Positions 7,630 through 60,169 of a stretch of DNA of 64,000 nucleotides are shown here, piece by piece. Below the pieces are notes generated by a model. That model saw only the letters and a list, made by a program, of their open reading frames with translations. It was not told the origin of the DNA and made no database searches. The DNA comes from a phage. The translations under genes and the position numbers were made by a program. The stretch lies in sequence record PV357171.2, one strand, 5' to 3'. Numbering within the stretch: the first letter of the stretch is position 1; each line of letters begins with the position of its first letter.

Positions 7630-8268
7630 ATGGGTCGACAAAAGCTAACAATAAAAGATATAAATACTAGATTAGCTGATCGTGGAATCCAAATTGTCGG
7701 TGAATATGTAAACCAGCGTACAAAAACAGTATTTAGATGCCAGAGAGCACACGTTTGGGAAGCAACACCACATTCTGTACTTCATATGAGGAGAGGTTGT
7801 CCACACTGCTCCAATAATACAATATCGTTAGATGAAGTTAGTAACAGAATATCTAATATAGGGTATACTCTGTTAAGCAGCTATACTAATGCTAAAACAA
7901 AACTACATCTACGTTGCAATAATGGGCATGACTGTTTCATTACCCTAGATGGATTGACTCAAGGTAAAAGATGTCCTTATTGTTCTCTTAAATGGGAAAA
8001 TGGCGGATTCCTCTATATCATGTCCTCCTGCAGAGGTACTAAAGTAGGCATAAGCTTATACCCTGAGAAGCGGCTGAACGAGGTTAAAAGAGAATCTGGA
8101 TTTTCTGACATATACTTGTTCACCGTGTATTATCTGCCGGATAGAGAGACTGCTTTAGATTTAGAGAAGGAAGTTCACAGAAAATATTATAATAAAAACT
8201 GTGGGTTTTCTAATTTTACAGGAAGTACGGAATTTTTTAATGTTGCTCCTGAAGATGCTTTCAAATAG
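7630..8268 (+). CDS. putative homing endonuclease, T5orf172/GIY-YIG-like domain with duplicated N-terminal zinc-ribbon modules
   Basis: Two repeats ending CPHC and CPYC; C-terminal GGFLYIM...GTKVGIS...R...E pattern; inserted between terminase and portal. Confidence 0.6.
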   Translation: MGRQKLTIKDINTRLADRGIQIVGEYVNQRTKTVFRCQRAHVWEATPHSVLHMRRGCPHCSNNTISLDEVSNRISNIGYTLLSSYTNAKTKLHLRCNNGHDCFITLDGLTQGKRCPYCSLKWENGGFLYIMSSCRGTKVGISLYPEKRLNEVKRESGFSDIYLFTVYYLPDRETALDLEKEVHRKYYNKNCGFSNFTGSTEFFNVAPEDAFK

Positions 8269-8494
8269 GGAAGCATTCTACAAGAAATATGAGCATGAGT
8301 TAGTTAGGGACGTGGTAACATTGTGCCAGCACCATCACCAATTATTACATAAGGTTTACACAAAAGAACCTCCTTTATTTTCTGCTAATAAGCAAAAAGT
8401 GTGGGTTCAAAAGCAGAAAGACAAATTACAGAATCCTCAAGAAAAGACACAAGTCAAGACTGAAACAAAATCAGGATTCGCAAGGTTCTTATAA
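8255..8494 (+). CDS. hypothetical small protein with His-rich HNH-like motif (LCQHHHQLLH)
   Basis: Track ORF 8201..8494, start trimmed to internal ATG; stop overlaps portal ATG (TAATG). Confidence 0.3.
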   Translation: MLSNREAFYKKYEHELVRDVVTLCQHHHQLLHKVYTKEPPLFSANKQKVWVQKQKDKLQNPQEKTQVKTETKSGFARFL

Positions 8495-9594
8495 TGGGTT
8501 TTAAAAGCTGGATTACTGAAAAGCTAAATCCGGGTCAACGTATTATAAGAGACATGGAACCAGTTAGTCATCGCACTAACCGTAAGCCTTTTACCACTGG
8601 ACAAGCCTACAGTAAAATTGAGATTCTCAATAGAACTGCTAATATGGTTATAGATAGTGCGGCGGAGTGTTCTTATACTACTCTCTTAAATGTACGACCT
8701 AATCCATTCATGGATATAAGCACATTCCGTAGACTTGTAGTCACTGACCTACTTTTTGAAGGTTGTGCATACATCTATTGGGATGGCACATCGCTTTACC
8801 ATGTCCCTGCTGCACTGATGCAAGTAGAGGCAGATGCCAATAAGTTTATCAAAAAATTTATATTTAATAACCAGATAGACTATCGCGTAGATGAGATTAT
8901 CTTTATAAAAGATAACAGTTACGTGTGTGGCACAAATTCTCAAATTTCTGGACAATCTCGCGTTGCTACTGTTATTGACTCTCTTGAGAAGCGTTCTAAG
9001 ATGCTTAACTTTAAAGAGAAATTCCTCGATAACGGAACTGTGATTGGTCTTATTCTTGAGACGGATGAAATCCTGAACAAGAAATTGCGTGAGCGTAAAC
9101 AAGAAGAATTACAACTAGATTATAATCCTAGTACTGGTCAGTCCTCTGTCCTGATAGACTTTAAGGAAGACATCGAAGGATTTAATAAATCCATCTGTCT
9201 AGCCTTTGGTGTTCCGCAAGTGCTACTTGATGGCGGTAATAATGCGAACATTCGACCAAACATCGAATTGTTCTACTATATGACTATCATTCCTATGCTG
9301 AACAAGCTGACTAGTTCTCTTACTTTCTTTTTTGGTTATAAGATTACTCCTAATACTAAGGAAGTAGCTGCATTAACACCAGATAAAGAAGCTGAGGCTA
9401 AACATTTAACCTCATTGGTTAATAATGGTATTATGACTGGTAACGAGGCTCGTTTAGAGCTGAACCTTGAACCTTTAGATGATGAGCAGATGAATAAGAT
9501 TCGTATTCCTGCTAACGTTGCTGGTTCTGCAACAGGTGTATCTGGTCAAGAAGGTGGTAGACCTCAAGGTTCCACCGAGGGAGATAAAGAATGA
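8494..9594 (+). CDS. portal protein
   Basis: 366 aa; position between terminase and prohead protease; translationally coupled to neighbours. Confidence 0.65.
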   Translation: MGFKSWITEKLNPGQRIIRDMEPVSHRTNRKPFTTGQAYSKIEILNRTANMVIDSAAECSYTTLLNVRPNPFMDISTFRRLVVTDLLFEGCAYIYWDGTSLYHVPAALMQVEADANKFIKKFIFNNQIDYRVDEIIFIKDNSYVCGTNSQISGQSRVATVIDSLEKRSKMLNFKEKFLDNGTVIGLILETDEILNKKLRERKQEELQLDYNPSTGQSSVLIDFKEDIEGFNKSICLAFGVPQVLLDGGNNANIRPNIELFYYMTIIPMLNKLTSSLTFFFGYKITPNTKEVAALTPDKEAEAKHLTSLVNNGIMTGNEARLELNLEPLDDEQMNKIRIPANVAGSATGVSGQEGGRPQGSTEGDKE

Positions 9595-10738: not shown

Positions 10739-11296
10739 ATGACTATTGATATTAATAAGCTGAAAGAAGAACTTGGTCTGGGTGATCTGGCTAAATCTCT
10801 GGAAGGTCTGACCGCTGCTCAGAAAGCTCAGGAAGCTGAACGTATGCGTAAAGAGCAGGAAGAAAAAGAACTGGCTCGTATGAATGACTTGGTTTCTAAA
10901 GCAGTTGGCGAAGATCGTCAGAAACTGGAACAAGCTCTGGAACTGGTTAAGTCCCTGGATGAAAAATCTAAGAAGAGCGCAGAACTGTTTGCACAGACTG
11001 TAGAAAAGCAGCAGGAAACTATTGTTGGTCTCCAGGACGAAATCAAATCTCTGCTGGCAGCTCGTGAAGGGCGTTCCTTCGTCGGTGATAGTGTGGCTAA
11101 AGCACTGTACGGTACTCAAGAAAACTTTGAAGACGAAGTGGAGAAACTGGTTCTTCTGTCCTACGTGATGGAAAAAGGTGTATTTGATACCGAACATGGT
11201 CAGAGACACTTGAAAGCTGTAAACCAGTCTTCTTCTGTAGAAGTTTCTAGTGAAAGCTATGAAACTATTTTCTCCCAGCGTATCATCCGTGACTGA
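10739..11296 (+). CDS. major capsid protein, N-terminal scaffolding (delta) domain; frame terminates early
   Basis: Coiled-coil-rich 185 aa; followed in +1 frame by HK97-fold body. Confidence 0.7.
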   Translation: MTIDINKLKEELGLGDLAKSLEGLTAAQKAQEAERMRKEQEEKELARMNDLVSKAVGEDRQKLEQALELVKSLDEKSKKSAELFAQTVEKQQETIVGLQDEIKSLLAAREGRSFVGDSVAKALYGTQENFEDEVEKLVLLSYVMEKGVFDTEHGQRHLKAVNQSSSVEVSSESYETIFSQRIIRD

Positions 11297-11972
11297 GGTT
11301 AAAGGTGCTCTGACTGAAATCCACTTCAGTACTTACAAACTGGCTGCTAAGTCCTTCATTACTGATGAAACTGAAGAAGATGCAATCTTCTCCCTGCTGC
11401 CGCTGCTGCGTAAACGTCTGATTGAAGCACACGCTGTTTCTATCGAAGAAGCGTTTATGACTGGTGATGGTACTGGTAAACCTAAAGGTCTATTGACTCT
11501 TGCTAGCGAAGATGGTGCTAAAGTTACTACTGAAGCTAAAGCTGATGGTTCTGTTCTGGTAACTGCTAAGACTATCTCTAAACTGCGTCGTAAACTGGGC
11601 CGTCATGGTTTGAAACTGTCCAAACTGGTACTGATTGTATCTATGGATGCTTACTACGATCTGCTGGAAGATGAAGAATGGCAGGATGTTGCTCAAGTTG
11701 GTAATGATGCTGTTAAACTGCAGGGTCAGGTTGGTCGTATTTATGGTCTGCCGGTTGTAGTTTCTGAATACTTCCCAGCTAAAGCGGTTGATAAAGAGTT
11801 CGCAGTTATTGTTTATAAAGATAACTTCGTAATGCCACGTCAGCGTGCTGTTACTGTTGAACGTGAGCGTCAAGCTGGTAAACAGCGTGATGCATACTAC
11901 GTTACTCAGCGTGTTAACCTGCAACGTTACTTTAGTAATGGCGTTGTATCTGGTGCTTACGCTGCATCTTAA
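11250..11972 (+). CDS. major capsid protein, HK97-fold body (in +1 frame relative to delta domain)
   Basis: 240 aa; strong terminator downstream; continuation of capsid gene. Confidence 0.7.
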   Translation: MKAMKLFSPSVSSVTEVKGALTEIHFSTYKLAAKSFITDETEEDAIFSLLPLLRKRLIEAHAVSIEEAFMTGDGTGKPKGLLTLASEDGAKVTTEAKADGSVLVTAKTISKLRRKLGRHGLKLSKLVLIVSMDAYYDLLEDEEWQDVAQVGNDAVKLQGQVGRIYGLPVVVSEYFPAKAVDKEFAVIVYKDNFVMPRQRAVTVERERQAGKQRDAYYVTQRVNLQRYFSNGVVSGAYAAS

Positions 11973-15228: not shown

Positions 15229-16128
15229 ATGTACTACTCTCTAATGAGAGAGTCAAAAGTTATAGTTGAGTATGATGGTAGGGCATTTCATTTTGATGCC
15301 CTATCAAACTATGATATACAGACTTCCTACGAGGAATTCAAGACTCTTCGTAGGACTGTTCATCGTAGAACTAACTATGCAGACTCTATTATAAATGCTC
15401 AAACCCCCTCTTCTATCTCTCTAGCAGTAAATTTCAGTAATACTCTTACTGAGGCTAACTTCTTTGAATGGTTAGGTTTTGATAGAAAAGGTAATACTTT
15501 CTTACTCCCGCTATATAGTAGTAATATTGAACCTATTATGTTCAATATCTATATAGTAAATAAAGATAATAACTGTGTATATTTTGAAAACTGTTATGTA
15601 TCTACAGTAGATTTTTCTTTAGATAAGAACATACCAATTCTTAATGTTGGTATTGAGTCTGGGAAATTCTCAGAAGTATCTACGTATAGAGAAGCAGCTT
15701 CTATTATACAGGGTGAAGTAATGTCTTACAGCCCAGTAATAGCTTCTACTAATGGCAGCATCTTACCCGGTCTTATTTCTGCCTCTTTATCTTTCCAGCA
15801 GCAGTGCTCCTGGAGAGAGGATAAGAGTGTTTTTGATATAAATAAAATTTATAATAATAAAAGAGCCTATGTAACTGAAATGAATGCTTCGGCAACCATT
15901 TCTCTGTACTACTTAAAACGTTTTGCAGGAGATATGGTTTATAATATAGAACCGGAGACAGATGTACCTTTAATGATAAGAAATAATAATATTTCTATAG
16001 ATTTTCCTTCAGCACGTATTACAAAACGCCTAGAGTTCTCAGATGTGTATAGAGTTGAGTGGGATATTATACCTATTGCTTCTTCAGACCCAGTGAGAAT
16101 AGATTTCTTTGGAGAAATTAAAAAATGA
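15229..16128 (+). CDS. tail tip collar protein (p140-like)
   Basis: 299 aa; synteny between tube and tape measure. Confidence 0.4.
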   Translation: MYYSLMRESKVIVEYDGRAFHFDALSNYDIQTSYEEFKTLRRTVHRRTNYADSIINAQTPSSISLAVNFSNTLTEANFFEWLGFDRKGNTFLLPLYSSNIEPIMFNIYIVNKDNNCVYFENCYVSTVDFSLDKNIPILNVGIESGKFSEVSTYREAASIIQGEVMSYSPVIASTNGSILPGLISASLSFQQQCSWREDKSVFDINKIYNNKRAYVTEMNASATISLYYLKRFAGDMVYNIEPETDVPLMIRNNNISIDFPSARITKRLEFSDVYRVEWDIIPIASSDPVRIDFFGEIKK

Positions 16129-26332: not shown

Positions 26333-26755
26333 ATGAGTACTGAAAATAGAGTTATAGACTTAGTAATAGATGAGAAAGTACCATATGGTTTAATGATGCA
26401 GTTCTTAGATGTTGATGATAGTACTTATCCACCTACAAGTACCCCTGTTAACTTAACTGGGTATTCTCTAAGGGGTACTATAAAAAATAGCCTAGATGAG
26501 AATGCGGAGATATTGGCATCCTTTACTACTAATATTATTGATGCTGCTCAAGGGGCTGTAGCTATAAGTTTACCAGTAGAATCTGTGGAGAATATAGGAG
26601 CTAAAGCATCTAAAGATAGAGATAAATATAATCCTCGTCAGCGATTCGCAGGATACTATGATATAATTATGACTAGAGATGTTATAGGATCTGCAATTAG
26701 CTCCTTTCGTATAATGGAGGGTAAAGTATTTATCAGTGATGGGGTAACTAAATAA
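26333..26755 (+). CDS. collar protein (p132-like)
   Basis: 140 aa; synteny before L-shaped fibre gene. Confidence 0.5.
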
Positions 26756-29103
26756 TGGCAGTAACTACTAAGATTATTGTACAACAGATACTAAATATTG
26801 ATGATACTAAAGCTACTGCTAGTAAATTTCCTAGATATACAGTAACTCTTGGTAACTCTATTAGCTCTATTACTGCAAGTGAGTTAGTATCATCTATTGA
26901 GGCCGCAGCTAAGTCTGCTGCAGCTGCAAAAGACTCTGAAATAGCTGCTAAGACTTCAGAGCTTAATGCTAAGAACTCTGAACAGGAAGCTGCTATTTCT
27001 GCTGGAGCTTCTGAAGCCTCTGCCACTCAGTCCGCTACATCTGCTACTCAATCTGCAGAATCAGCGGATAGATCTGCAGAATCAGCCGCAGCAGCTAAAG
27101 TATCAGAGACTAATGCGAAAGCTAGTGAAACTAAAGCTAAAACATCCGAGACTAATGCAAAAGCCTCAGAAACTAATGCAAAGTCTAGTGAAACCAAAGC
27201 TAAAACCTCGGAAACTAATGCTAAAACTAGTGAAACCAACGCTGCTGCTTCCGCTGCTGCTGCAAAAATTAGTGAGACTAATGCTAAGACTAGTGAGACT
27301 AATGCTGCTGAGTCTGCTGCGTCTGCTGCCGATTCTAAAGGTTTTAGGGATGAAGCAGAAACATTTGCTGCACAAGCGGCTGCCTCTGCTGCGGCTGCTA
27401 AAGTATCCGAGACTAAGGCAAAAACATCAGAAACTAATGCAAAGTCTAGCGAAACTAAAGCTAAGGCTAGTGAAACAAATGCTGCTAGTTCTGCAACTTC
27501 AGCTAGTCAATCAGTAACCACTATTCAAGGTCTAAAATCTGACGTTGAGGAATTAAAATCTGATACTCAAACCATAAAGAATAGTGCTGTAACTGAGACA
27601 ACAGCTTTAAAAAATCAAGCGGCTACTTCTGCAACTAATGCTGCTGCATCTGCTACTGAAGCGGGAAAACAAGCTACTAATGCTGCTAATAGTGCTAATA
27701 GTGCTAAAACTGAGGCTGACCGTTCAAAAACTGAAGCTGATCGTGCTAAAGCTGAGGCAGATAGATCTGAAGCCGCTATTAATGATACTCCTGAGCTGCA
27801 GCCGTTACCTGATGTATGGATACCTTTTAATGACTCCTTAGATATGATTACCGGCTTCTCACCTAGCTATAAAAAGATTATAATTGGTGACGATGAAATT
27901 ACAATGCCTGGTGACAAGATTGTTAAGTTTAAACGTGCATCAACTGCGACATATATTAATAAATCCGGCGTTTTCACTGTTGCGGGAATTGATGAACCAC
28001 GTTTTGAACGTGATGGTCTGCTTATTGAGGGGCAAAGAACAAACTATATTCTTAACTCCCTTACTGTTTCTAAATGGGGTGCATCTTCGTGGTTGACAAT
28101 CTCATCAAGCGGAGTTGATAGCTTTGGTTTTACATATGGCCGATTTGATGTTCAGTCTAGTAATGTTGGAAGCACAACATCCGGTAATATTGCTGTGGCT
28201 CCTTCACCAAGAGCTTTTGACGTTACTGGTGATGAGAAGTATTGCACTATATCTTGCCGATGCAAATGTGAATCAGACATAGATATTCGATGCAGACTCC
28301 GATTTGAGAACTACGACGGGACTGCCACATCCTTCATTGGCGATGCGTACATGAATATGCAGACTTTAGATATAACAACTACAGGTGGAGCAGCAGGTAG
28401 AATTACAGCTAAAGCGGTCAAGGATAATGCTACAGGATGGATATTTTTTGAAGCGACAATAAAAGCACTAGATACCGAAAATATGATTGGTGGCCAAGTT
28501 CAGATAGCACCATCTCAAAGAGTTGGATCTTTTGCAGATGGCGATCATATTATTGTTGCAACGCCGCAATTTGAAGGTGGGGCGACTGCATCGTCATTCA
28601 TCATATCTGATACAGTTGCAGCGACAAGGGCTAGCGATATGGTGACAGTGCCAATTAAAAACAATCTTTATAGCTTACCTTTTACGGTTCTTTGTGAGGT
28701 ACATAAGAATTGGTACAAAACACCGAATGCAGCACCGCGAGTTTTTGATACTGCAGGTCATCAAACTGGAGCAGCAATCATTCTTGGATTTGGTTCTTCA
28801 ACAAATTACGATGGGTTTCCATATTGCGATATTGGTGGGTCTAACCGACGTGTTAACGAAAACGCATCGCTTGAAAAAATGGTTATGGGGATGCGTGTGA
28901 AAGAAGATCAGATGACATGTGCGATAAGTAATGGGCGTATATCTAGTGAGACAAAGACAACTTGGACTTATATTCAAAGCTCTGCAACCATTCGTATAGG
29001 TGGTCAGACAACAACAGGGCAGCGTCATTTATTCGGGCATGTCAGAAATTTTCGAGTATGGCATAAAGCATTGACTGACCGTGAATTGAAGGAGTCGGTA
29101 TGA
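26755..29103 (+). CDS. L-shaped tail fibre protein A (LtfA-like), heptad-repeat shaft and C-terminal ConA/LamG-like lectin domain
   Basis: N-terminus resembles T5 pb1; SETNAK-type repeats; C-terminal motif FGHVRNFRVWHKALTDRELKE. Confidence 0.65.
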   Translation: MAVTTKIIVQQILNIDDTKATASKFPRYTVTLGNSISSITASELVSSIEAAAKSAAAAKDSEIAAKTSELNAKNSEQEAAISAGASEASATQSATSATQSAESADRSAESAAAAKVSETNAKASETKAKTSETNAKASETNAKSSETKAKTSETNAKTSETNAAASAAAAKISETNAKTSETNAAESAASAADSKGFRDEAETFAAQAAASAAAAKVSETKAKTSETNAKSSETKAKASETNAASSATSASQSVTTIQGLKSDVEELKSDTQTIKNSAVTETTALKNQAATSATNAAASATEAGKQATNAANSANSAKTEADRSKTEADRAKAEADRSEAAINDTPELQPLPDVWIPFNDSLDMITGFSPSYKKIIIGDDEITMPGDKIVKFKRASTATYINKSGVFTVAGIDEPRFERDGLLIEGQRTNYILNSLTVSKWGASSWLTISSSGVDSFGFTYGRFDVQSSNVGSTTSGNIAVAPSPRAFDVTGDEKYCTISCRCKCESDIDIRCRLRFENYDGTATSFIGDAYMNMQTLDITTTGGAAGRITAKAVKDNATGWIFFEATIKALDTENMIGGQVQIAPSQRVGSFADGDHIIVATPQFEGGATASSFIISDTVAATRASDMVTVPIKNNLYSLPFTVLCEVHKNWYKTPNAAPRVFDTAGHQTGAAIILGFGSSTNYDGFPYCDIGGSNRRVNENASLEKMVMGMRVKEDQMTCAISNGRISSETKTTWTYIQSSATIRIGGQTTTGQRHLFGHVRNFRVWHKALTDRELKESV
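27040..27490 (+). repeat. in-frame tandem repeats (about 21 bp units, SETNAK/SETKAK) inside LtfA gene
   Basis: Visible periodicity in protein and DNA. Confidence 0.7.
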
Positions 29104-29375
29104 AAGACTTAACTATGAAATTTAAGGACAAGAAAGCATTTGAGGATTTTCTTGTGGTTATTGATTGGGAAGGTAATGAAACTTTGCAAAATCAAATAAT
29201 ACTTGATGTTATCGGATATACTTATACACAAACTGGTGGCTCAGAGGAAGAGCCCATATATACCCAGAATGGGGGATATTATGTGAACGTAAGGGTTATT
29301 GATGATTCAATTGACTTCACTCAATACAGTGATCATAGTGTTATTCTTGAACAGTCTCTTAGAGAGTGGGCATAA
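29100..29375 (+). CDS. hypothetical protein (91 aa) between the two fibre genes
   Basis: ATGA overlap with LtfA stop. Confidence 0.4.
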   Translation: MKDLTMKFKDKKAFEDFLVVIDWEGNETLQNQIILDVIGYTYTQTGGSEEEPIYTQNGGYYVNVRVIDDSIDFTQYSDHSVILEQSLREWA

Positions 29376-29493
29376 GGTTTTATAATGGTAACTAAAACAG
29401 TAATTCCTACGGATATTACAAAACTTAAAAATGAGTCACTTAATAAAAATAATAACCTGAGTGACTTAGCAGACCGTGCAGCAGCCTGGCTAA

Positions 29494-31128
29494 ATGTGCG
29501 TCCTATTGGGTCCACCCCTCTTGCGGGGGATCCTGTTGGGGGACTATGATGCCGCAACTAAACGTTGGGTAGAGAATAAGATTAACACTGGTACAGTTGG
29601 ACCCACTATGAATGGTGTTATGAACTACGGTGTTGGTGATTTCCACCTTCGAGATAGCCGTGCATACATTCAACCATACGAGGTGGTTTCTGATGGGCAG
29701 CTCCTTAATAGGGCTGACTGGCCGGAGCTTTGGTCTTACGCTCAAATGGTGGGGGCAATTAGTGATGCAAAATGGTTAGCAGATCCACATGAGAGAGGCA
29801 AATACTCAGTTGGTGATGGTCGAACAACCTTCCGTGTTCCTGATCGAAATGGTGTTCAATCTGGCTCCTTTAAAGGTCTTTTTGGACGTGGTGATAGTGG
29901 GGTAACTTCTAACCTCGGTAGAACGAATGAGTCTTCTGCTCCTAACTTAACTGCCTACTTCAGAACCGTAACTGATACGTCAATTATTGAAAATGATGCT
30001 GCAAGTGGTGCTGGATACCCATCCGAGGCATACCAAAAATATGCTCGGCTAAGCGCTATTAAAGAAGAGGCTGCACTAGAAATATACCCACGTAGATGGA
30101 ACTTTGATGCTTCTCGCCAATCTAGTGTATATGGGCGTTATGGTAATACAGATGAGATTACACCTAATAACTTCACCGGTGTATGGGTAATCCGGGCGTC
30201 TGGTGGTTTCGTTGCAGCAAATACATCTTGGAGTGTTATTAACGGCGATGCGACCAGACCAACAGACAGCACAAGAGTTGAATCAGGGAAAGTAAGCGTA
30301 GAATATAAGATTGGAACGGCTATTGAGGCGCAGGGTAAAGTCTATACTGCTGCAACAATGGGCGGGACATATTCTACCCAGCTCTCTGTTAAAAATGCCA
30401 CTACGGGTAAAGAGAAAGATATCAGCGTCACAGAAGATGGTGATCTGTGGTCTGACCGCTTTAAGGGTAGATTTGGCACCCGTATGGCTTGGAGTCAGAC
30501 CGGCTGGGTCTATGGCACATTTTCCCAAGCCAACCAAGCCATCGGTAACGACTACAGTTTCTACAGTATTCTTAGCGGCTCCCAAAGTTCAAGCTCGGGC
30601 TATAAAACTCATACCCATATTGGTCAAATCCATAATGACAATGGTTCATTTGCTGATAGCTGCTGGCATGTTGCAGGTGATGATGATAATAAATATGGTG
30701 TACGTTTAAAAATTCAGCCTAATAATAATAGTATTTATTTCTATTCTTGGTGGCCTAATGGTGCAGCAACCTATACTTTGCAATTAAATGCTATATCTGA
30801 TTCTCGCTTAAAGCATGATATTAAGGCTATAGATGCAACTAAATCCATCGAAATATTAAAAGGATTGGAATTCCAATCCTTTGTATATAATAACGATGAA
30901 AAATCTCGTATCCGACGTGGGGTTATTGCTCAGCAAGTAGAGACTATAGAACCACTTTATGTAAAAACTAGAAGATTTTATAATAATGATGGGGTAGAGC
31001 AAGAACAGAAGGAATTAGATACGACTCCAATGCTTCTTGACACTATGCATGTCGTGCAAGAACTTATAAAACGGATTGAATCTTTGGAAGAAGAACTCAA
31101 GCAATTAAGAGCAAACCTAGTGCAATAA
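29494..31128 (+). CDS. L-shaped tail fibre protein B (LtfB-like) with C-terminal intramolecular chaperone (peptidase S74-type) domain
   Basis: C-terminal SDSRLKHDIK...coiled-coil chaperone signature; start codon assignment uncertain. Confidence 0.6.
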   Translation: MCVLLGPPLLRGILLGDYDAATKRWVENKINTGTVGPTMNGVMNYGVGDFHLRDSRAYIQPYEVVSDGQLLNRADWPELWSYAQMVGAISDAKWLADPHERGKYSVGDGRTTFRVPDRNGVQSGSFKGLFGRGDSGVTSNLGRTNESSAPNLTAYFRTVTDTSIIENDAASGAGYPSEAYQKYARLSAIKEEAALEIYPRRWNFDASRQSSVYGRYGNTDEITPNNFTGVWVIRASGGFVAANTSWSVINGDATRPTDSTRVESGKVSVEYKIGTAIEAQGKVYTAATMGGTYSTQLSVKNATTGKEKDISVTEDGDLWSDRFKGRFGTRMAWSQTGWVYGTFSQANQAIGNDYSFYSILSGSQSSSSGYKTHTHIGQIHNDNGSFADSCWHVAGDDDNKYGVRLKIQPNNNSIYFYSWWPNGAATYTLQLNAISDSRLKHDIKAIDATKSIEILKGLEFQSFVYNNDEKSRIRRGVIAQQVETIEPLYVKTRRFYNNDGVEQEQKELDTTPMLLDTMHVVQELIKRIESLEEELKQLRANLVQ

Positions 31129-31136
31129 TGTAAGAA

Positions 31137-31165
31137 AACCCCAGTGGATTTTGTCCACTGGGGTT
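31137..31165. terminator. bidirectional terminator between convergent late and early modules
   Basis: AACCCCAGTGGA-TTTT-GTCCACTGGGGTT with T/A tracts on both sides. Confidence 0.75.
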
Positions 31166-31187
31166 TATTATTTATTTGATATGTAGA

Positions 31188-32506: not shown

Positions 32507-32988
32507 TATTTAATTAAGTCCTCAACAGATGCATGATGTAGCCACGGCTCAAATAAACCAATTACGATTTCCATGTCTTTCTTATTTAACACCATATGGG
32601 TACGACTCATTAAGTTGTCAACCATCGGGTCTGAGCTATCCAAAGCTATTAACCACTGTCCTCTGTCTTTTTTGAATATTAATGCAGGTTTGGAGTTCAT
32701 CTGCTCACCTTCACGTGAGCACTGCTGCCACCACTTCTCTAGGGTGGATTCACCAACATTAAATAAATTACTTGATAATGCGTCGTCTTTATAATGTTTT
32801 ACTTCAAAACAGTACTTACTGATTTTGCCTGTTTGTGGTGGAAGGTAGATGTCACCTTTCAGTCCGTGGCTCTGGCCAAAAGCACCAGAGCCAGGCACTC
32901 TCTCCCACTCTAGCTTTGTTCGCTCTCTAAGAATATCTCTTACTTGATACTCAGCTCTTTTTCCTTTTTCTCTACTATCTACAGCCAT
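32506..32988 (-). CDS. hypothetical protein, possible PD-(D/E)xK nuclease (D14-like)
   Basis: 160 aa; D...EVK pattern (GDIYL...FEVKH). Confidence 0.35.
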   Translation of the reverse strand: MAVDSREKGKRAEYQVRDILRERTKLEWERVPGSGAFGQSHGLKGDIYLPPQTGKISKYCFEVKHYKDDALSSNLFNVGESTLEKWWQQCSREGEQMNSKPALIFKKDRGQWLIALDSSDPMVDNLMSRTHMVLNKKDMEIVIGLFEPWLHHASVEDLIK

Positions 32989-33479
32989 TATTCCTCTGGG
33001 AAATTTAATACTGCGAAATCTCCGAAGTATTCTTTTGCTTTAATATCATAGGCTTTTGCCGCAATTTCTTCAGTTGGGTAGCTACCAATATACTCAGTTT
33101 TTCTGCTGAAAGGATTGCCAATTCTAGCGATATAGCTCCTACCATTAAAATGGACTCCTCTAACTGTATTTGGGCTAGACCTATTAGCCATATTCTGGGA
33201 TCTAGAACAGTCTCTCAGATTTTCTATTCTATTATTACTAACATCTCTATCTATATGGTCTATTTCCTTTGGCCAATAATTATTGAACATAAAAAATATC
33301 AGTCTATGAACATACTCTTGCCTCTGGAACAAAGTAACCCTTAGATACCCGGCCTTATTAGGAGTACCTGCAGGTACTCCTGCCTTCATCCTACCCCTAG
33401 TCTGCTTATTTATTAGCAGTCCATCCCTATAATTATATCTATTCCAAAGGTATTCTACAGTAACTCTTGGATCAGCCAT
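32988..33479 (-). CDS. HNH homing endonuclease with C-terminal AP2-like DNA-binding domain
   Basis: HIDRDVSNNRIENL HNH core; C-terminal ...EEIAAKAYD... AP2-like. Confidence 0.7.
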   Translation of the reverse strand: MADPRVTVEYLWNRYNYRDGLLINKQTRGRMKAGVPAGTPNKAGYLRVTLFQRQEYVHRLIFFMFNNYWPKEIDHIDRDVSNNRIENLRDCSRSQNMANRSSPNTVRGVHFNGRSYIARIGNPFSRKTEYIGSYPTEEIAAKAYDIKAKEYFGDFAVLNFPEE

Positions 33480-57462: not shown

Positions 57463-59289
57463 TTACTTAAGATTTAAGTGTTTTACTCTACCAAGTACTT
57501 CTTTTTGTTTCCCAGAATTGAAAGGCCTACTGCCCGGGGATCCCAGGTACCCGCAAACCCTACGTGTAACCTCTATTTCTTCAGATCCACAACTCGGACA
57601 TACAAACCCACGTTCAGAGGCAACAGATTCACCCATATACCCACAGTTGAAGCACTCATCAATTGGTATATTAACACCAATATAATGACTACATTCTAGT
57701 CCCTTATCTACTACGTATTCAAGAGCTTTATGGAACTTTTTCATTTGTGGTAGTTCCACAAACGATATATTACCACCATTAGCTATTTTGGTGAAATGAG
57801 CTTCATACTCAAATTTAGTATCCGGAGCTACCTTCTCCCTTACGTCCAAATGATGACTATTAGTGAGATAGCCTTTATCTGTTAGCCAAGAATACTCAGG
57901 GAACCTACGTTCCAGTAGTTTATTAAAGCGATTACATAGAGACTCACTAGGAGTAGCATACAAGCTAAACCCAAGATTAGTCTCATTAGCTTTAACTTCG
58001 CAACGATTTTTTAGGTGAGTAAGAACTTCCTCTGTAAATTCAATACAGTCCCTATGAGTCTGCGGTAAACTAAACATTATTTGGCACATCTCATAGACCC
58101 CAATATACCCAAGAGATACAGAAGATCTACCCTCAAAAATTGGCCATACATACTCTTCCCTATCTAAACGCACACCAAAACCACCGTGCATATAAAGAAT
58201 AGGGGCTTGTTTAGCCTTCACTTTCTTAAGTCTATCCAAGAAAAAATCATGAGCTTCAAAAGCCTCATCCACATATTTGTCCAGAATATCCCAGAAATCT
58301 TCAAAAACCCCATCTGCCTCAGCAGCAACCATAGGTAGATTAATAGACACTACACCTAAATTATTGCGCCCTGCAATTTCTCCGGAGGGGATAGCAGATA
58401 AAAAGCTACGACAACCCATAGGGGCTTTAAAATCACCAGTAACAGCTATAACTTTCTCATAGCTTAAATAGTCTGGGTACATACGGGTAGCAGAACACTC
58501 AAGTGCTAGCTGTTTTATATCATAGTTAGGATCGCCTGGATTTTTATTTAACCCTTCTTTAACTGAGAATACTAGTTTAGGGAAGATAGGGGTTGACTCG
58601 GCAGCACCTAAACCTTTAATACGATTTTGGAGGATGGCTTTCTGAATCATCCTTTCCTCCCACTCCTGACCTAATCCAAAGCCAAGCGTAACAAAAGGGG
58701 TCTGCCCGTTAGAGTTAAATAATGAATTAGTTTCATACTCTAGAGCTTGGAATGCATCATAACACTCTTTTTCAGTAAGCTCAGTAGCATACACAGCAGC
58801 TTTTCTTTCATCCTTGAGCCAACGTAGCCCACGACCCAGATGTTTATTGTAAGACTTTCTGACATACGGGGCTAGAACCTCGTCGATACGATCAATAGAG
58901 GTACCACCATACTGAGCACCAGATACTTGGGCAATAATCTGAGCAGTGATTGCACATGCAGTAGTTATGGATTTAGGAGTTTCAATATTTGCATTACCGA
59001 TTTTAGTACCATTCTTCAGCATGCCCCCCAGATCTACTAAACAACAGTTGGTGTACCCTTGTGCTCTGTAGTCCATGTCATGAATGTGTATTTTACCTAG
59101 ATTATGCGCGTCTAACAGGTGTTTAGGTAATTCTTGCGATACTAAATACTTGTTAATTTCCCCAGCTAATAAGTCCCTTTGAGTATGGAACATCTCACTA
59201 GGCTTATTAGCATTATTATGTTGTAAGTCTTTATCCGCAGTTAGAGTGAGCAGACCTTTGCAATTTTCAATTAATTCATTCTCTGTCAT
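57463..59289 (-). CDS. nrdD: anaerobic ribonucleoside-triphosphate reductase (class III)
   Basis: 608 aa; C-terminal glycyl-radical motif RVCGYLG; zinc-binding Cys cluster CFNCGY...CPSCG. Confidence 0.85.
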   Translation of the reverse strand: MTENELIENCKGLLTLTADKDLQHNNANKPSEMFHTQRDLLAGEINKYLVSQELPKHLLDAHNLGKIHIHDMDYRAQGYTNCCLVDLGGMLKNGTKIGNANIETPKSITTACAITAQIIAQVSGAQYGGTSIDRIDEVLAPYVRKSYNKHLGRGLRWLKDERKAAVYATELTEKECYDAFQALEYETNSLFNSNGQTPFVTLGFGLGQEWEERMIQKAILQNRIKGLGAAESTPIFPKLVFSVKEGLNKNPGDPNYDIKQLALECSATRMYPDYLSYEKVIAVTGDFKAPMGCRSFLSAIPSGEIAGRNNLGVVSINLPMVAAEADGVFEDFWDILDKYVDEAFEAHDFFLDRLKKVKAKQAPILYMHGGFGVRLDREEYVWPIFEGRSSVSLGYIGVYEMCQIMFSLPQTHRDCIEFTEEVLTHLKNRCEVKANETNLGFSLYATPSESLCNRFNKLLERRFPEYSWLTDKGYLTNSHHLDVREKVAPDTKFEYEAHFTKIANGGNISFVELPQMKKFHKALEYVVDKGLECSHYIGVNIPIDECFNCGYMGESVASERGFVCPSCGSEEIEVTRRVCGYLGSPGSRPFNSGKQKEVLGRVKHLNLK

Positions 59290-59947
59290 TGATTATTTCC
59301 TCGATAAACCTTGCTACTATTTCTGGCTCAATACTAAAAAATTCTGTAGCACCATCAAAATCTTTGTACTGACAATTATATTCCTTAAACTGTAAATGGG
59401 CCTCTCTTTCAATACGCATAGCTTTTGATCTATCTGAAAAGCTATATTCCTTAAATATTTTTAAATCATGTATGTTAGAAGAAGTTTTAATATCTCTGAG
59501 TCTATCTTTAGTTCTGCTAGACACCCCTATTTTGGTTCCCACACTACTTATTAAAATATATACGTTAGTAGGATAATTATCCTTCTCTAATAAACATATA
59601 GGACAACCAGAATTATGATTTCTAACACTATCAAGTGTAGACTCCCATCTATGATTATTCTCACAGCTGAACATAATTTTACTCTTAGAATTGATGTATT
59701 TACCTTCCATCTTTATTCCACGAGCAGCTAAGGATTCATTTACCTCTTTAAGATCTAAAGTACGACTAGCACAATAAGGGCAACCTCTCCCACCTTTTAC
59801 ATTATCTACTCTAGCCTCCCAGATATGTCCATTAGAGCACTTAAATACAGCATTGGATTTAGCTGATATATACGTGCTTAGCATAATTATTCCTCTGGGA
59901 GCAAGTGTTAAGTTCACATCTTCTGTAGTTATTTTCTTTCTTACCAT
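59276..59947 (-). CDS. putative homing endonuclease, T5orf172/GIY-YIG-like with N-terminal zinc-ribbon repeats (paralog of 7630..8268)
   Basis: CPYC and CPIC modules; YILISSVGTKIGVS...R...E; own promoter and SD. Confidence 0.6.
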   Translation of the reverse strand: MVRKKITTEDVNLTLAPRGIIMLSTYISAKSNAVFKCSNGHIWEARVDNVKGGRGCPYCASRTLDLKEVNESLAARGIKMEGKYINSKSKIMFSCENNHRWESTLDSVRNHNSGCPICLLEKDNYPTNVYILISSVGTKIGVSSRTKDRLRDIKTSSNIHDLKIFKEYSFSDRSKAMRIEREAHLQFKEYNCQYKDFDGATEFFSIEPEIVARFIEEIINDRE

Positions 59948-59968
59948 TAAATTCTCCTTAATTCACAT

Positions 59969-59997
59969 ATTATACACAATTCCACCCCATAAGTCAA
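59969..59997 (-). promoter_or_regulatory. sigma70 promoter TTGACT-17-TATAAT for T5orf172-like gene
   Basis: Read from sequence. Confidence 0.6.
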
Positions 59998-60169
59998 CTA
60001 CATTTTTCTAATACTATTTGACTTTTGATTTTTATCAATTTTTATTGATGCTATACAGCATAATATCTTTACATATAAATAAATGATTATCTAGTATCAT
60101 ATTTTTACCTTTATAAGCAAGTAAATTTTTTACTTAAAAGCAATATCATAGGTTTATTTAAAATTATAC

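Follow-up and report, generated by a model that had tools for sequence, protein, structure and literature searches.

The closest described systems are the lateral tail fibres of phages DT57C and DT571/2 and the corresponding fibre gene of Salmonella phage SIA3lw. The distal half of DT57C and DT571/2 LtfA, as well as LtfB, has in common with the gene described here a module that reads ...LSDLADRAAAWLNVRPIGSTPLAGDPVGDYDA[A/V]TKRWVENKINTGTVGPTMNGVMNYG..., with 80–85% identity over ~145–175 aa (Golomidova 2016, PMC4728585). The fibre proteins of these phages likewise finish in an S74-type chaperone end, and LtfC-like and LtfA-like genes lie 5′ in the fibre locus. A proposed N-terminal docking segment of DT57C LtfB, of ~45 aa, is related to gp15 of phiEco32 (PMC4728585). 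When Q45 of DT571/2 ltfB is mutated to an opal codon, the LtfB-dependent host and the visible lateral fibres are lost, and the phage grows normally on rough laboratory strains (PMC4728585). For SIA3lw, mass spectrometry of phage proteins separated by SDS-PAGE identified the ORF44 product, at a coverage of 46% from 20 peptides (PMC12752171).

The locus analysed here lies in a window of 64,000 nucleotides of phage sequence record PV357171.2. SIA3lw is its closest complete genome, with ~97% identity over 24 kb and 99.8% over the 2151-nt fibre region. ORF44 holds the same position in the locus, where SIA3lw has GGGG and one 1743-nt CDS, whereas the window has GGGGG and two ORFs. The features of the locus are as follows.

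26333..26755, plus strand: LtfC-like collar protein for attachment of the L-shaped fibre, 140 aa (phrog_34807, phrog_1084)
26755..29103, plus strand: LtfA-like proximal fibre protein, 782 aa (phrog_1419; 99.9% identity to SIA3lw ORF42)
29100..29375, plus strand: conserved 91-aa ORF between the two fibre genes (phrog_1361; annotated at the same position in relatives)
29374..29377, plus strand: Shine-Dalgarno (SD) core AAGG of the true start 29385, with a spacing of 7 nt
29385..31128, plus strand: whole broken gene for the lateral tail-fibre protein, 1744 nt as deposited
29385..29549, plus strand: 54-codon ORF, ATG at 29385-29387 and stop TGA at 29547-29549, translated as MVTKTVIPTDITKLKNESLNKNNNLSDLADRAAAWLNVRPIGSTPLAGDPVGGL and a stop
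29494..31128, plus strand: 544-codon ORF that holds the remainder of the fibre gene
29538..29542, plus strand: GGGGG run with an insertion of 1 nt; bases 1 and 2 of the run belong to codon 53 of the intact gene
31136..31166, plus strand: strong terminator-like hairpin just 3′ of the fibre stop, 14 pairs and then a T-rich tail

Our comparison makes it very probable that 29385..31128 is one T5-like (Tequintavirus) lateral tail-fibre gene that falls into two frames only due to an extra G. A sequence-only reading of the same DNA had noticed that the ATG at 29385 opens a 54-codon frame overlapping the ATG at 29494; both coordinates are reproduced, with an overlap of 56 nt between the two ORFs. It had also described 29494 as a start that lacks an SD and follows an in-frame stop, and this description holds. 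The 29494 ATG lies in the +1 frame relative to the 29385 ORF with an in-frame TAA (29491-29493) immediately 5′, and its anti-SD score of −1.5 equals the median of all 1127 plus-strand ATGs. The 29385 start has an anti-SD duplex of −4.4 kcal/mol, which is in the top 12% of all window ATGs and inside the range of real gene starts (median −6.0).

The two ORFs fit together as pieces of a single coding sequence. The 54-codon ORF consists of codons 1-52 of the fibre gene, two out-of-frame codons (G, L) and TGA, and its residues 1-52 are the same (52/52) as those that open the unbroken 580-aa protein of SIA3lw. Conversely, codons 1-16 of the 544-codon ORF (MCVLLGPPLLRGILLG) are an off-frame reading of fibre codons 37-52, and the authentic frame is back at GAC 29542-29544, which encodes residue Asp53 in the uninterrupted fibre protein. 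The C-terminal end of the 54-codon ORF (...PLAGDPVG/GL and the stop, the slash marking the junction) and the +1 frame that follows (...G/DYDAATKRWVENKI...) are the halves of one conserved fibre motif. Off-frame ORFs of ~54 codons are numerous in the window ORF list and the size of this one is in itself unremarkable; it is distinguished from chance ORFs because of its homology, not its length, and in a profile search the 54-aa peptide alone matches phrog_6921 positions 153-203 (E 2.8e-9). Ribosomes that initiate at ATG 29385 with the AAGG core would read 52 correct codons, be thrown out of frame by the extra G and terminate two codons on, yielding a 54-aa peptide. The 54-codon ORF is a fragment of the broken gene, not a biological feature in its own right, and holds nothing novel. 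Similarly, ATG 29494 is not a genuine start, only the first ATG after the stop in frame with the remaining 528 codons.

The sequence-only reading had suggested aligning the fibre-start region with related phages, and this alignment locates the break. At 29538-29542, where the window has GGGGG, four bases are present in 18/18 aligned relatives, in the versions GGGG, GAGG, GGAG, GGCG, AGTG or AATG in the nucleotide alignments, and full-length DNA matches to the fibre region are one base shorter than the query. Deletion of one G gives a single ORF of 1743 nt and 580 aa with zero internal stops, whose product is identical to SIA3lw ORF44 (WVL05981.1) at 578 of 580 residues. The fibre N-terminus displaced by an indel, one of two explanations that the sequence-only reading had offered, is therefore what the alignment bears out, in the form of a 1-nt insertion in the G-run. 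Annotation should accordingly give one frameshifted 580-aa tail-fibre gene from 29385, flagged as a pseudogene or corrected, and not a 54-aa hypothetical protein followed by a 544-aa fibre protein from 29494.

Profile and structure-derived sequences show the same continuity. Residues 3-577 of the repaired protein match phrog_6921 positions 153-737 of 738 in one unbroken stretch (E 1.2e-183), so that membership in this family is found with a match that continues across the junction. The orthologue in FGS017 is annotated as phrog 6921, with KM979355_p107, which is DT571/2 ltfB, as its top match. A Peptidase_S74 chaperone domain (PF13884) is present C-terminally at repaired residues 471-523 (E 9.8e-13; 48.6 bits against a cut-off of 22), consistent with a C-terminal intramolecular chaperone. 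The repaired protein also aligns to DT57C LtfA residues 526-1073 in the deposited sequence of PDB 8hqz chain d, which reads ...PLAGDPVGDYDAVTKRW... uninterrupted. Moreover, ...PLAGDPVGDYDA... is continuous in the deposited DT57C LtfA, DT571/2 LtfA and DT571/2 LtfB, and the fibre module is in a single frame in both DT571/2 LtfA (~residues 530-684) and LtfB (~185-327).

The position of the gene agrees with its sequence. It lies 3′ of the ltfC-like and ltfA-like genes and 5′ of a convergent dUTPase gene, with the 31136..31166 hairpin between fibre and dUTPase genes, and the N-terminus of the 782-aa LtfA-like protein matches the tail-attachment part of DT57C LtfA (residues 1-236, E 1.1e-35). By sequence, locus position and S74 domain, the gene is assigned to the T5-like lateral tail-fibre family; a place of its product in the virion has indirect support from the mass-spectrometric identification of the 578/580-identical SIA3lw protein. 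The earlier label 'LtfB-like' stands as far as locus position and PHROG family are concerned, but ~150-185 N-terminal residues of the DT571/2-type LtfB are absent and the conserved module is also common to the distal half of DT57C and DT571/2 LtfA. The first 152 positions of the phrog_6921 profile have no counterpart in the repaired protein, similarity to DT571/2 LtfB starts only at LtfB residue 185, and comparison with DT571/2 LtfB and phrog_6921 finds no counterpart of the ~45-aa N-terminal docking segment of the DT57C type. Judged by its sequence, the fibre protein does not strictly count as an LtfB of the DT57C type, as that proposed docking segment is what it lacks. The placement of the module differs as well: it sits at the extreme N-terminus of a separate 580-aa protein here, in contrast to residue ~530 of LtfA and ~185 of LtfB. 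The central receptor-binding part is divergent from that of DT57C and DT571/2, and a 91-aa ORF lies between the two fibre genes here.

This 91-aa ORF (29100-29375) has zero Pfam matches and is always found between two fibre genes in this T5-like group; it may be a fibre assembly or adaptor factor. Its exact product is not on record in a protein look-up. A promoter scan around the junction returned a site count no higher than in shuffled sequence.

Relatives were compared for the two-ORF arrangement. SIA3lw, FGS017, IrisVonRoten, Es2, EC100, T5_ev219, JLBYU40, phA11 and L6jm each have one long CDS that begins precisely at the counterpart of 29385. A tblastn census with the N-terminal 110 residues of the repaired protein as query identified 242 phage records, and in a 60-row sample spread over these matches every row spanning residues 52/53 is unbroken, with the exception of VSe12. 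The VSe12 fibre gene (MN022787.1) is split by a +C of its own, which lies in a run of Cs at codon 45, 24 nt 5′ of the junction in the window; it leaves a 64-aa N-terminal ORF and a CDS annotated as 'tail fiber protein' that starts at the same internal ATG, and further breaks lie downstream. The fibre gene of OR896837.1 has a −1 indel at codon 82 with noisy base changes around it. Both homologous genes are thus also deposited split (within our locus extracts, VSe12 L029 2201-3930 and OR896837.1 L017 301-911), by causes independent of the extra G in the window. Since the three records are broken at three different sites, the two-ORF architecture is not conserved, which is decisive against a programmed frameshift, a phase-variable tract and a genuine small gene. 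Exact searches of IMG/VR and metagenome contigs gave 0 matches to the 5-G junction and 4 and 3, respectively, to the 4-G version. A scan of GTDB genomes gave 0 matches to the 5-G junction, but the 4-G control also gave 0. A large protein and contig collection has no record of the 54-aa product or of the 544-aa product. Codons 44-53 form a GC-rich homopolymer cluster (CCCC..GGGGG..GGGG) in a genome of 39% GC, and this cluster may be a hotspot for errors or slippage mutations.

The origin of the extra G has to be considered together with other defects of the record, which affect the major capsid and portal genes.

10739..11296 (185 aa) and 11250..11972 (240 aa): major capsid gene split into different frames by a 143-nt deletion at 11293/11294
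8494..9594: portal gene, 366 aa instead of 405, with in-frame blocks of 60 and 57 nt missing at 8679/8680 and 9155/9156

The 143-nt capsid deletion is absent from all three complete genomes compared. Among the records covering the capsid region, the best 25 of 547 all span ~143 nt more than the query, and the same ~143 nt would be expected in each of the 547 that cover most of it. If real, the deletion would be lethal, and it is probably an assembly or sequence defect. A viable phage cannot carry a frameshifted capsid gene; therefore, the record contains assembly or sequence defects. The 60-nt and 57-nt portal blocks are present in >400 relatives, and the exact 366-aa portal product is not on record in a protein look-up. 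Salmonella phage SP3 (MG387042.1, 'partial genome') is the only relative with near-identical portal deletions, of 59 and 56 nt with breakpoints 1 nt off, and its capsid gene has a 71-nt deletion that overlaps the one in the window but is different. TCTAGA palindromes or short repeats border the missing blocks, which are located inside predicted hairpins. This pattern suggests a systematic technical cause, for example template jumping in amplification or assembler mis-joins. Taken together, the private frame-breaking capsid deletion and the two portal deletions indicate that the record is not a faithful viable genome, a warning that it needs re-assembly before gene-level conclusions are drawn.

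With these defects in the same record, an artefact is a priori more probable for the extra G as well, and we give about an even chance to an error in the deposited or assembled sequence, slightly likelier than a real mutation. The insertion site is a homopolymer and the remainder of the fibre gene is without decay, both of which count toward an error. In a comparison of ~60 SIA3lw proteins and three complete genomes, only the fibre and major capsid genes are frame-broken. Several observations argue against an error. The window has 894 homopolymer runs of at least 4 bases and one frame-breaking homopolymer indel in ~60 comparable genes, so the data are not generally prone to homopolymer errors. 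The other defects of the record belong to another class of error, namely large deletions. Furthermore, the affected gene is among the few structural genes that are dispensable in the laboratory, where a real mutation would survive (PMC4728585). In the case of an error, the phage itself would produce the normal 580-aa fibre.

Somewhat short of an even chance, though still a serious contender, is a genuine slippage mutation from G4 to G5 that became fixed in the phage stock, with the fibre truncated after residue 52 and lost. The engineered opal mutant at codon 45 of ltfB is viable and shows this class of gene to be dispensable on laboratory strains (PMC4728585). Its second fibre protein is cut at codon 45 and that of the window at codon 53, which is nearly equivalent and makes this mutant the nearest model of the phenotype that a real extra G would give, but the Q45 opal codon was introduced on purpose, and into another LtfB, one of the DT57C type. 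By analogy with this mutant, the phage would be a natural lateral-fibre mutant growing on rough or permissive hosts. Hosts with the O-antigen recognised by the fibre would be lost, and visible lateral fibres might vanish altogether. That the extra G is the sole frame-breaking homopolymer indel among the 894 runs and ~60 comparable genes favours this explanation, and VSe12 and OR896837.1, with independent frame-breaking indels in the first 250 nt of the gene, fit recurrent loss in propagation, although these two breaks may themselves be sequencing errors. Against a real mutation, the record has defects with which no phage would be viable (143 nt lost from the capsid gene, 60 and 57 nt from the portal gene), and the fibre gene shows zero secondary mutations, as its 578/580 identical residues indicate. 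Should the insertion be real, the phage would make little functional fibre or none and would be without its second host-range fibre, which is relevant to host-range predictions and to therapeutic or biocontrol use. The practical value of the finding lies in annotation and quality control.

Far less probable than either origin is that the five Gs are functional, as a recoding site (+1 frameshift at GGG-G or transcriptional slippage) or as a phase-variable tract. By its sequence, GGG_G would let tRNA-Gly pair perfectly again after slipping by +1, and hypermutable poly-G tracts, as known from Campylobacter phages, count for a phase-variable tract. However, the four bases of relatives are often not a homopolymer (GAGG, AGTG, AATG, GGAG, GGCG), the 5-G junction is found in none of the collections searched, and other broken records break elsewhere. 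A tract of 5 bases is also far below the length of known slippage or contingency tracts. Stimulators of the prfB type for +1 shifting comprise a slow or stop codon in the A site and an SD-like element ~3 nt upstream. At the junction, the A site holds GGA, the shift site is free of stop and rare codons, and the stop comes two codons downstream. The phage-borne tRNA-Gly(tcc) of SIA3lw would read the following GGA, and the upstream SD-like GGGGG is 8 nt away as compared to 3 nt in prfB. A programmed frameshift or slippage site was rejected, with neither the two-frame architecture nor the slippery sequence conserved and with a recognised +1 stimulator and a long run both absent. Similarly, a prfB-like +1 frameshift at CUA-UGA or GGG-GGA is ruled out by sequence context and non-conservation, and a poly-G contingency tract was set aside for a run that is short, is not kept as a homopolymer and has 5 bases only in the window. 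It is very unlikely that the five Gs are real and that a little full-length fibre would arise via a +1 slip of tRNA-Gly on GGG_G or polymerase slippage, in a leaky knock-down with codons 44-53 as an on/off hotspot for a dispensable host-range fibre, a situation that could, if true, explain the VSe12 break 24 nt away.

The least probable explanation, and the other that the sequence-only reading had offered, is that the 54-codon ORF is a small-protein gene of its own, with the fibre truly starting at the SD-less ATG 29494: both ORFs do exist and the VSe12 fibre CDS is annotated from the equivalent ATG, but intact relatives all begin the long fibre CDS at their counterpart of ATG 29385, the peptide is the fibre N-terminus itself, the 16 codons after 29494 are conserved codons read off frame, the SD strength of that ATG is that of a random one, and VSe12, the only other record with a small N-terminal ORF, owes its split to its own separate +C insertion, so that the candidate, whose ORF with its own stop is not conserved in relatives, is already refuted by comparison.

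The preferred reading, one fibre gene interrupted by an extra G, concerns a short part of the window, and differences from SIA3lw are also seen elsewhere. On the minus strand, at 32988-33479, a 163-aa HNH endonuclease ORF (Pfam HNH_3, E 2.3e-14) lies between D14-like and SbcC-like genes at a site where SIA3lw is without this sequence and the window has 484 nt extra; it is probably a homing endonuclease. On the plus strand, at 7630-8268, part of the SIA3lw nicking-endonuclease region (~220 nt there, ~700 nt in the window) has given way to a 212-aa ORF whose domains are T5orf172/MUG113, CapR-homology and treble-clef zinc-finger; this ORF is probably another mobile endonuclease-type gene. In the A-run at 16115-16125, just 5′ of ATG 16125, the window has AAAAAA where SIA3lw and FGS017 have AAAAA; the longer run changes how the 300-aa tail gene upstream ends (its two final codons and its stop), and HMD-P4 does not show the difference at this position. 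Finally, the NrdD (anaerobic ribonucleotide reductase) region at 57466-60081 is ~60% identical to SIA3lw at the amino acid level, compared to 95-100% for its neighbours, and is ~580 nt longer in the window, which suggests an exchanged allele or an inserted element.
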